A DNA stretch of 64,000 bases from an uncultured Pseudomonadota bacterium (GTDB taxonomy: Bacteria > Pseudomonadota > Alphaproteobacteria > RF32 > CAG-239). The DNA lies in contig CASFJK010000005.1 in the NCBI GenBank assembly GCA_949295025.1, forward strand, positions 13,235 through 77,234, given 5' to 3'. Shown here one piece after another: positions 4,802-6,367 of the stretch; the stretch's first letter is position 1, and the number at the start of each line of letters is the position of its first letter. A model generated the notes under the pieces. The model was not told where the DNA came from, ran no database searches, and saw only the letters and a program-made list of their open reading frames with translations. The position numbers were made by a program, and so were the translations under genes.

Positions 4802-6367
4802 ATGGAAGAAAACACAAATAATAATCCGCCCAGAAAAAAACGACCACGCATTCAGCGTCCTCGCATTCAGCCGCAAACATTTACATTACCCATGTTTACG
4901 GACAGACAAAACCGTGAGCATATTGAACCGCAAAAAAGATTAAGTTTGGTTGAAGCTCTGCAAAATTTGGTCAAAAAACCCGAAGAATTTTGCCGCACCA
5001 ATCCGCAAATGGTTAAGAATATTCTTAGCAAAATTGTTTCCGAATATGATATTGCCAAAGTATCAAGCGGAGATATTCTAACTTTGGTAAAAAAGTATGA
5101 AAATGCCATTGAAAGAAAATATATCACGTCAGCGGCACGCCAAGATATTCAAAACCTTCTCTCTGCAAACCCGCGCCCACTTCTCGAAAGAGACAATAAA
5201 ATTCGTTTGGAATGTATGGAACAACTAAAAAAATTGTCAGAGAAAAAAGAAATCACACCTGAACAATATCAATATTTACATAAGACTTATTTTTCGGACA
5301 TTATCTCAAAAGACAATCTGCCCCATGCACAAGTTTCTCAAATGTTACGTTGCATGGCTTCAGGAAAATTTTATGCTCCAATCGGTCCTGATAGAAAAAT
5401 AGATAGAAAAAAATTTTCTCCAACATTTCTAAAAATTTTGAACCAAAAGAAAAAATCTAACATTTCAGCCAAAATTGAAGATTACGACTTTTTCGGCTTA
5501 GATAAAAATAAGCAACCCAAATCAAAAGTTTGGTATGCTGTTAAAGATAGTCGTAATTTTCAAAAACTCAAAAATATCATTGCCAAACGCTGCATAGAAA
5601 AAGGTATCGCTCCAGAACAAGCTTACAATCTTAATCCTGCAGATTTGTGGATGCTACTAGCAAAAGATATTGAAAAGACAAAACCCATTCCGTTTTCTTC
5701 TCTTTGCAAAGATGCCAATCCGGCACCATTTGAAGAATTTTCCGTTAAACTTGGTCAAATATTATCAATTGGCGGTGCCTTAGAAATGAAACAAGAACAA
5801 ACAATAAATCTCTGGTTAAAACATTTTGCCTCTAAGCAAGAAAAAGAAGATTTTACAAATAAATATTCTCCCGACTTCAAATTGTTTATCCAAAGATGTG
5901 AACGCATTTATCAAAAGCTGGAACAAGATTTCAAACAAAATCACATCAATCCCAAATTTATGTCACTCTGGGTAGAAAGTATGCTCAAAAACAAAAGCAT
6001 CAATCCCTCTTTGGTTGATTGTCCGAGAAAACCTTATAAAATAGACATTCACCACTGGGATAGATTATCCTCTCTGCAAGATGGTGATAATCCAGCCAAG
6101 AAAAACAATCTGGATAACTTTGGTGTGATGATAATGTATCATGACTATAGTTTTGATATTCATGCTCAAGAACACCAAGGAGAAAGCGCTCATTTTGTTC
6201 TGGCAAACAGAGAACAAACAACCATGAACAAAGACCGTCGTTTTCTCTTTGCTACCTCAAATTGCCTTTACATTAGCGATAATATAATGTATGAAGCATC
6301 AGATTATGCTCCTTTGAATAAAGAAGCTTCATCTCACAACTTAACCATAGACAAACAAAGAGCCTAA
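4802..6367 (+). CDS. Hypothetical 521 aa protein with a tandem basic NLS-like N-terminus (PRKKRPRIQRPRIQ)
   Basis: Long ORF, first of a 4-gene plus-strand operon with intergenic gaps of 3-15 nt. N-terminal direct repeat RPRIQ-RPRIQ preceded by PRKKRP. No recognisable catalytic motifs. Confidence 0.55.
   Translation: MEENTNNNPPRKKRPRIQRPRIQPQTFTLPMFTDRQNREHIEPQKRLSLVEALQNLVKKPEEFCRTNPQMVKNILSKIVSEYDIAKVSSGDILTLVKKYENAIERKYITSAARQDIQNLLSANPRPLLERDNKIRLECMEQLKKLSEKKEITPEQYQYLHKTYFSDIISKDNLPHAQVSQMLRCMASGKFYAPIGPDRKIDRKKFSPTFLKILNQKKKSNISAKIEDYDFFGLDKNKQPKSKVWYAVKDSRNFQKLKNIIAKRCIEKGIAPEQAYNLNPADLWMLLAKDIEKTKPIPFSSLCKDANPAPFEEFSVKLGQILSIGGALEMKQEQTINLWLKHFASKQEKEDFTNKYSPDFKLFIQRCERIYQKLEQDFKQNHINPKFMSLWVESMLKNKSINPSLVDCPRKPYKIDIHHWDRLSSLQDGDNPAKKNNLDNFGVMIMYHDYSFDIHAQEHQGESAHFVLANREQTTMNKDRRFLFATSNCLYISDNIMYEASDYAPLNKEASSHNLTIDKQRA

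Follow-up and report, generated by a model that had tools for sequence, protein, structure and literature searches.

A predicted His-Me finger protein with a basic, nuclear-localisation-like tail and a divergently encoded partner in an uncultured alphaproteobacterium

Should a bacterial protein whose first residues resemble a eukaryotic nuclear localisation signal (NLS) be regarded as an effector destined for a host nucleus, or does it act at home, in the cell that makes it? The question is raised by an open reading frame (ORF) at positions 4802-6367 (plus strand, ATG start) of a 64-kb stretch of contig CASFJK010000005.1 (assembly GCA_949295025.1) from an uncultured member of the Pseudomonadota; "the window" hereafter means the whole of this stretch. 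Translation of the ORF gives a protein of 521 amino acids that begins with MEENTNNNPPRKKRPRIQRPRIQPQTF, exactly as in the original prediction, which was made from the sequence letters and proposed a host-targeted effector. Our analysis leads us to prefer another reading, to which we give about an even chance: the ORF would be the large subunit of an undescribed, chromosomally fixed module of two genes that acts on nucleic acid in the cytoplasm of the producer.

An orphan family with a predicted C-terminal finger

The 521-residue protein has no match in Pfam, NCBIfam, PHROGs, PADLOC or the sequences of the PDB. The first four of these libraries were negative not only for the full protein but also for its isolated C-terminal domain, for the protein encoded by the partner gene described below and for the members of alignments A2, A3 and A6; profile searches of the PDB with alignments A1, A3 and A6 returned 0 matches at E <= 10, and 23 family members yielded no Pfam domain. 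Because all library searches were negative, the protein cannot be placed in any existing family, and both its helical domain and its partner are orphans, in line with the earlier statement that most of the protein carries no recognisable motif. A word-indexed search of 5.8 billion proteins recovered 13 clusters, all unnamed and 35-97% identical, and a second search with the extended alignment A2 gave the identical 13; an exhaustive profile search of 1.84 billion representatives gave 24 representatives only. The family splits into three subfamilies, A (which includes the window protein), B and C, with B about 20% identical to A. All nine genome records with subfamily A are metagenome-assembled genomes (MAGs) labelled as uncultured Alphaproteobacteria, proteobacterium or Azospirillaceae, and one of these carriers stems from human gut data of the Hadza. 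The group may belong to the gut lineage of the RF32/CAG-239 type.

The best-conserved part of the protein is the segment KIDIHHWDR...DIHAQEHQGE near the C-terminus. Two AlphaFold2 models, one of the full-length protein (14-sequence alignment; mean predicted local distance difference test score, pLDDT, 81.9; predicted template modelling score, pTM, 0.74) and one of the isolated domain formed by residues 380-505 (21-sequence alignment; pLDDT 82.3), predict the same beta-beta-alpha unit here, the last 50 or so residues of the protein being modelled with low confidence. In the full-length model, DSSP places within this unit (residues 411-463; 6032-6190, plus strand) a first strand at 413-418, a second at 440-445 and a helix at 453-457; in the isolated domain, the predicted strands are at 34-39 and 61-66 and the helix at 74-78 (domain numbering). 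The order is thus a first strand ending in H417-H418, an Omega-loop with N435 and N439, the second strand, the helix and then G-E-S. H417, H418, H454 and H458 are invariant in all 21 sequences, which are 17-97% identical; N435 and N439, both between the two strands, are each found in 18 of the 21, position 461 is E or D in every one of them, and H454 stands at the start of the helix with H458 at +4.

By definition, a His-Me finger consists of a beta-hairpin followed by a helix, in which the catalytic His ends the first strand, often after an Asp, Glu or His ligand, the loop that joins the strands contains an Asn, and the helix provides a His or Asn in its first turn, with a further ligand at +4 or +8 (PMC5714182). 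Each of these features has its counterpart in the predicted topology: the hairpin and helix, H417-H418, N435/N439, H454 and H458. On the strength of these residues and of the two models, the C-terminal unit is quite probably a His-Me (HNH-like) finger, and the earlier suggestion that this His/Asp-rich segment forms a metal-dependent catalytic site appears well supported.

Searches for a known relative of the finger gave no significant similarity to HNH proteins, whether by Pfam, by hmmsearch against the PDB, by Foldseek against the PDB and BFVD, or by hhalign. The best Foldseek E-values were 1.3 (PDB) and 0.3 (BFVD), and hhalign placed IDIHH on YELHH of colicin E9 with a probability of 0.4%, the colicin E9 sequence having been verified against 1bxi_B. 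The structure prediction and Foldseek search that had been recommended for this domain therefore delivered a modelled beta-beta-alpha unit and no significant fold match. The weak fold matches are nevertheless enriched for HNH proteins: 13 of the 41 weak BFVD matches are annotated as HNH, one superposes 30 columns at 1.5 A, and the colicin E7 DNase and Cas9 are among the weak matches in the PDB.

The lack of significant similarity to any HNH protein in these searches favours the alternative that the protein is not a nuclease, the HH...HxxxH histidines forming a structural or regulatory metal site in a scaffold, a DNA-binding regulator or some other enzyme, whose chemistry would then sit in the helical domain. 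This all-alpha domain (residues 46-400; 4937-6001, plus strand) accounts for 70% of the protein with its approximately 355 residues, is modelled with a pLDDT of about 90, has a net charge of +20 and appears to be novel, Foldseek finding no match in the PDB (best E = 2.1). It carries the motif MLRCMA(A/S)GKFYAP and, outside the finger, the superfamily-invariant residues R183, D281, P309 and W390, of which R183 and D281 would be the ones to serve such a chemistry; together with H417, H418, H454 and H458 these four are the sole invariant residues in 21-23 sequences. What speaks against this alternative is that the invariant residues of the C-terminal unit correspond one by one to the general base of a His-Me finger, its preceding ligand, the loop Asn, the helix His and the ligand at +4, that they lie within a predicted beta-beta-alpha topology, and that HNH proteins recur among the weak fold matches. 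We therefore consider it unlikely that the protein is something other than a nuclease.

The divergent partner gene and the chromosomal setting

Upstream of the large gene, and divergent from it, lies a small gene (4279-4647, minus strand) of about 122 codons when counted from the conserved start M23; the mechanically called ORF extends to 4713, and conservation begins at M23. A homologue of this partner adjoins the large gene in the same upstream, divergent arrangement in all nine subfamily A genome loci, and an adjacent and divergent partner is likewise found in nine subfamily C loci (L010 and L013-L020) and in three of subfamily B (L021-L023). The small protein has the invariant pattern FF.HFN...WCI.E...VISV...F...L..LY.D.WY. 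The partners are homologous across subfamilies (hhalign E = 1.4e-4 over 105 columns) and keep the string FFSKHFNVP identical as far as L021. With 20 clusters the partner family is as rare as that of the large protein, and it has no Pfam or PDB match. A helix-turn-helix-like pattern, FFSKHFNVPKEKLKWCILE, was noticed in the partner by eye, and no tool supports it. Most partners are basic, with an isoelectric point (pI) of 8.4-9.9, and that of L021, in subfamily B, is acidic (pI 4.9); the argument that a basic partner must be a DNA binder and not an immunity protein was downgraded on account of this acidic one.

The two genes are separated by a conserved divergent control region of 154 bp (4648-4801; 21% GC), in which 10 aligned intergenic regions share invariant blocks, and which is conserved even where the proteins of a locus are only about 40% identical. 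The large gene has a predicted near-consensus sigma-70-type promoter at 4740-4768 (plus strand; TTGACA-17-CACAAT), the best scanned site with a score of 10/12, both hexamers of which fall on invariant or near-invariant alignment columns. On the minus strand, TTGACAAA (4699-4706) is the likely -35 box of the partner promoter; its TTGTCAA, which is TTGACAA on the opposite strand, is invariant in 10/10 aligned loci and is also present in L010, L021 and L022. The two TTGACA boxes thereby stand back to back. A third conserved box, TAGACAAA (4668-4675, plus strand), is kept in most loci and may be an operator, and a degenerate fourth copy is present at 4723-4730 (minus strand). Three exact T[TA]GACAAA boxes thus occur within 80 bp, as against 19 in the entire 64 kb, and the region also contains the inverted-repeat pairs I1, I4 and I11.

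Over the window as a whole, the extended box TTGACAAA / TAGACAAA occurs 19 times where 11.2 +/- 3.5 occurrences are expected, a number that 3 of 100 shuffles reach. Other copies lie at 2012, 3059, 3846, 11740, 21029, 32595, 40423 and 55731, among others, and the box may be an extended -35 element typical of the promoters of this organism. The control region furthermore contains a 24-nt direct repeat, AACATATTTCATGCTTTTTGTCAA at 4683-4706 and AACATATTTAATGCTTTGTCTTAA at 4709-4732, with 83% identity and a spacing of 26 nt, the second copy being less conserved in other loci.

The module is chromosomal, stable within lineages and not island-like. The window has a GC content of about 37% and carries ordinary chromosomal genes, including those for FtsH, AspRS, RuvB, TolQ, RNase D, ZntA and an MsbA-like ABC exporter. 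The upstream neighbours (1867-3053) are common to L001-L003, a tRNA-Gln(CTG) gene is located just upstream of the gene pair in L005, L006, L008 and L009, with no integrase near these tRNA sites in the ORF lists, and in nine independent contigs the subfamily C pair lies between ssb/uvrA and lipoprotein/gyrA. A mobile-element origin was considered and rejected, as neither 50,697 phage records nor 72,556 plasmids gave a tblastn match; IMG/VR likewise holds no relative of any of the three subfamilies.

A possible nuclease with a small neighbour can also be read as an interbacterial toxin-immunity pair, in which an HNH DNase directed at competing bacteria would be kept in check by the small protein. 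HNH DNases are indeed frequent antibacterial toxin domains (PMC5714182), the small gene strictly co-occurs with the large one, and the colicin E7 DNase is among the weak structural matches. However, no Pfam trafficking domain (PAAR, Rhs, LXG, MIX, colicin translocation or receptor) was found, and neither the large protein nor its partner matches any PADLOC-DB model at E <= 0.1; the small gene lies upstream and divergent instead of being co-transcribed downstream, where the genes differ between loci. Moreover, the C-terminal domain is not polymorphic but exceeds all other parts of the protein in conservation, each locus holds a single copy in a syntenic position, and no genes for type VI or type VII secretion systems (T6SS, T7SS) or for contact-dependent inhibition (CDI) are found nearby. 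Colicin immunity proteins are acidic and mimic DNA. The partner, unlike these, is mostly basic, a weak point given that one subfamily B partner is acidic. Taken together, we think a toxin-immunity pair quite unlikely.

The genes downstream of the large gene vary. In the window they form a co-directional run (6371-8207, plus strand) consisting of an orphan ORF of 134 amino acids, which starts 4 nt past the stop of the large gene, a class A beta-lactamase (PF13354, E = 3e-41) and a GNAT acetyltransferase; a bidirectional terminator (8234-8264), beside a tRNA-Met gene, closes the run. Elsewhere the large gene is followed by a NUDIX-like gene or by the gene of a 90-aa lipoprotein. The 134-aa ORF (6371-6775) was examined as a candidate immunity protein and rejected: outside the window it recurs in L001 and L002 alone, and there a NUDIX-like gene parts it from the large gene. 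In distant subfamily A loci, the gene of an 89-90-aa lipoprotein overlaps or abuts the stop of the large gene (L006, 9488-9760; L007, 3028-3297; L009, 9661-9933); its product has the lipobox LLCSC followed by VSYYD...YNSPLRLRGLN and might be a third component of the module. In subfamily C loci, another lipoprotein, of 143 amino acids, is encoded on the opposite strand and on the same side of the module. The gap between this lipoprotein gene and gyrA is variable (L013, 2217-3056; L014, 553-2132); one contig carries a Dam-type methyltransferase (PF02086) and glycine-rich proteins, and another an InsA-like insertion sequence fragment, which suggests an insertion hot spot beside the subfamily C module. 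Near subfamily B modules, we noted an ankyrin-repeat protein at a distance of about 1.5 kb in L021 (632-1399, minus strand) and a GmrSD-type type IV restriction gene at about 5 kb in L022 (11327-11533), neither of which recurs in other loci. Further away in the window, four ORFs are without a Pfam match: 30605-32488 (627 aa), 49905-52568 (887 aa), 16709-17866 (385 aa) and 11644-12600 (318 aa), all on the minus strand. The 627-aa ORF has a weak NCBIfam match to an RTX-family hemolysin (E = 7e-7, far below the cut-off), and the genome appears to be rich in orphan proteins.

The basic tail and its likeness to a nuclear localisation signal

The first 45 residues of the large protein (4802-4936, plus strand) form a disordered tail with a pI of 11.3, the pLDDT being below 50 for residues 1-42. 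The tail contains the tandem RPRIQ-RPRIQ (residues 14-23; 4841-4870, plus strand), of which copy 1 comprises residues 14-18 (4841-4855) and copy 2 residues 19-23 (4856-4870). The duplication, originally reported as a perfect five-residue repeat encoded by a 15-nt direct repeat, is perfect in the peptide; in the DNA, cgaCcaCgcattcag and cgTccTcgcattcag are identical at 13 of 15 nucleotides, both mismatches being synonymous third positions. Copy 2 has diverged in orthologues, to RPQNQ (L001), RSTTT (L003) and LSERA (L002), and the family relatives have one or two copies per protein and never more, which does not bear out the suggested variation in repeat number.

The first copy overlaps the conserved, NLS-like basic core PPRKKRPRI (residues 9-17; 4826-4852, plus strand). 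In an alignment of 14 sequences with identities down to 35%, conservation reaches at least 90% at K12, R14, P15, R16 and I17. In a comparison with five orthologues, the changes in codons 9-17 number 17 synonymous and 7 non-synonymous, the latter all at positions 9-11, with K12-I17 unchanged, whereas the flanking codons on the two sides show 3 synonymous against 19 non-synonymous changes and 8 against 25. Such a ratio next to flanks dominated by non-synonymous changes, together with the conservation of at least 90%, implies that the first basic motif is translated and selected; judging from these codon counts, the KK[KR]RPRI core is under purifying selection and the second RPRIQ copy is not. 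In the same part of the gene, an antisense ORF of 86 amino acids (4867-5127, minus strand) is 77.5% "conserved" in L001, most simply a by-product of conservation in the sense frame and not a gene. A beta-clamp-binding motif in QTFTLPMF was considered by eye and dropped, as the stretch is poorly conserved.

The original prediction reasoned that bacterial proteins rarely carry NLS-like stretches unless they act inside eukaryotic cells. This premise fails for the lysine-rich proteome of the window (K = 8.5%), in which K[KR]x[KR] is present in 16 of the 64 likely proteins (25%) and the stricter published NLS classes of the Kosugi type in 5 of the 64, FtsH among these; the basic cluster of our protein has 7 K/R in 12 residues, compared with 6 in 12 in nine other window proteins. 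The resemblance itself is real for the window protein, since PRKKRPR fits the class-2 monopartite pattern [PR]xxKR[^DE][KR] as the sole class-2 match in the window, and lies in a disordered and conserved stretch; its relatives fit only K[KR]x[KR]. Phage terminal proteins are known to contain functional NLSs, as are nucleotide-binding domains of prokaryotes (PMC3609834, PMC7189692), and among prokaryotic proteins that bind nucleic acids, NLS-like stretches are a common feature (PMC7189692, PMC3609834, PMC13311002). An in-silico screen listed 140 proteins positive for a classical NLS (cNLS) in one S. aureus strain, and across the screened species the cNLS candidates included FtsK, helix-turn-helix regulators, HsdR, transposases, integrases, ParB and ribosomal proteins (PMC13311002). 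What sets the PPRKKRPRI stretch apart is its conservation.

The subfamilies differ in this region. Subfamily A proteins start acidic, after which comes P-x-KK[KR]RPRI; all eight full-length subfamily B proteins have N-x-P-x-x-R-x-R-[VIMF] at an equal distance from the N-terminus and no lysine cluster. In subfamily C the N-terminus is of another kind and lacks the motif. R14-P-R16-I17 of the window protein is the RxR-hydrophobic core that is found in subfamily B too, which is suggestive of this core being the element common to A and B, and of the lysines that make it NLS-like being specific to A. As the core is present in B without the lysines, the conserved function of the tail would predate its NLS-like character, and the ancestral motif would not have been an NLS.

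These results bear directly on the idea of a host-nucleus effector (a nucleomodulin or genotoxin). Subfamily A would then be a nucleus-targeted HNH genotoxin of gut Alphaproteobacteria, exported in vesicles or by a specialised secretion system, possibly encoded elsewhere, and imported by importin-alpha through KKKRPRI, a tail motif upgraded to an NLS; the HNH-like domain would cut host DNA, and the partner would be a chaperone or an inhibitor that protects the producer. It is in favour of this idea that a published monopartite NLS class has its sole match in the window at the tip of a disordered tail, that the motif is strictly conserved within subfamily A, and that subfamily A is more basic (pI about 9-9.5) than B and C. 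Its carriers are moreover uncultured MAGs of alphaproteobacterial type, at least one of them from a human gut data set, a nuclease joined to an NLS follows the logic of known genotoxins, and the ankyrin-repeat protein of L021 is located near the module. Against it stands the question of export: a hydropathy test, with the neighbouring ORF 3916-4233 as positive control, detected no signal peptide (Sec), transmembrane segment or twin-arginine (Tat) motif in either protein, and there are no genes for type III, type IV or type VI secretion systems (T3SS, T4SS, T6SS) in the window or in 22 related loci. The setting is stable and syntenic, not island-like; the RxR-hydrophobic core lacks the lysines in B and is absent in C, so that the motif would be older than its NLS form; simple NLS patterns occur in a quarter of the window proteins, and NLSs, functional or predicted, are widespread among the proteins with which prokaryotes and phages bind nucleic acid (PMC7189692, PMC3609834, PMC13311002). 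The effector idea is thus unsupported rather than refuted, and we regard it as improbable. Phage terminal proteins accumulate in the nucleus as fusions with green fluorescent protein (GFP), so nuclear GFP alone would not confirm an effector.

A working model and its relation to known systems

Under our preferred reading, that of a two-gene module acting on nucleic acid inside the producer, H418 at the end of the first strand would serve as general base, and H417, H454 and H458 would hold one divalent metal, in the manner of H102, H127 and H131 of colicin E9. The helical domain would bind DNA and position the small and intrinsically unspecific finger, with the Lys/Arg tail helping in subfamily A. 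The partner would control the nuclease in one of two ways: it may bind to it as a subunit that regulates it or gives it specificity, or it may be a regulator that acts on the promoter boxes shared by the two genes. In the tail, the RxR-hydrophobic core may serve as a short linear motif that a bacterial partner or DNA recognises, and the extra lysines that make it NLS-like may be a lineage-specific addition in the gut alphaproteobacterial subfamily. Defence, DNA processing and repair are candidate roles for the module.

Several points weigh against this model. The HNH assignment draws on a motif and on a topology predicted from shallow alignments of 14 and 21 sequences, and the searches described above gave it no significant similarity. 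Nuclease activity, substrate and interaction with the partner are predictions, and the role of the partner, whose charge is not conserved, is pure inference. With subfamilies only about 20% identical, it is uncertain how a short motif within a disordered tail should be aligned. Finally, the strict conservation of KK[KR]RPRI fits specific recognition by a protein better than unspecific binding of DNA, and the protein that recognises it could in principle be importin-alpha.

If the model is correct, the locus would represent an unannotated His-Me finger family with a new helical domain of about 355 residues, an obligate partner and a shared promoter. The superfamily from which restriction enzymes, Cas9 and bacterial toxins are drawn would thereby be enriched by a distinct architecture, and two orphan gene families would gain a function, the large family being confined to a handful of uncultured lineages, gut Alphaproteobacteria included. 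The locus also calls for caution in in-silico screens for nucleomodulins, as a textbook-looking and conserved NLS of a bacterial protein can be a lineage-specific elaboration of an older motif that was not an NLS. Should subfamily A turn out, on the contrary, to be a nucleus-targeted nuclease of gut commensals, it would be the first nucleomodulin of the HNH type, and the gut microbiota would be credited with a new DNA-damaging activity, which matters for microbiota-driven DNA damage and for which evidence of secretion is needed first.

Among known systems, the predicted active-site pattern is closest to that of the colicin E9 and E7 DNases, which likewise have a beta-hairpin and helix, HH at the end of the first strand, an Asn in the loop and HxxxH at the start of the helix. 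The four histidines form the same constellation as H102, H103, H127 and H131 of colicin E9. By contrast with the colicin DNases, the loop between HH and HxxxH is 36 residues long here and 24 there, a novel helical domain of about 355 residues precedes the finger, and there is no significant match in sequence or fold. Neither translocation and receptor domains nor a downstream immunity gene are present, and the gene is chromosomal, syntenic and accompanied by an obligate divergent partner. The embedding of the finger in a larger stabilising domain is nevertheless shared with many members of the His-Me superfamily (PMC5714182).

Type IV or McrA-like restriction enzymes resemble the protein in their plan, with a large, putatively DNA-binding N-terminal region followed by a small C-terminal HNH-like finger, and in being cytoplasmic and chromosomal. 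They differ from the present system, which has no Pfam or PADLOC match, conserved synteny in place of the turnover of defence islands, a separate small partner and a very narrow distribution.

Nucleomodulins and genotoxins such as CdtB, VirD2 and AnkA share with the window protein a monopartite, NLS-like cluster of Pro, Lys and Arg in a disordered region and, in addition, a probable nuclease domain; CdtB itself has a DNase I-type fold and not an HNH fold. Unlike in these proteins, no secretion signal or system was found here, and the conserved core of the tail would predate its NLS-like form. In phage terminal proteins and prokaryotic DNA-binding proteins, as in ours, a basic cluster satisfies the rules for a eukaryotic NLS while residing in a prokaryotic cytoplasm (PMC3609834, PMC7189692); what distinguishes the window protein from these is that its motif lies in a disordered tail and not in a folded nucleotide-binding domain, and that the sequence of the motif is conserved, not just its charge.

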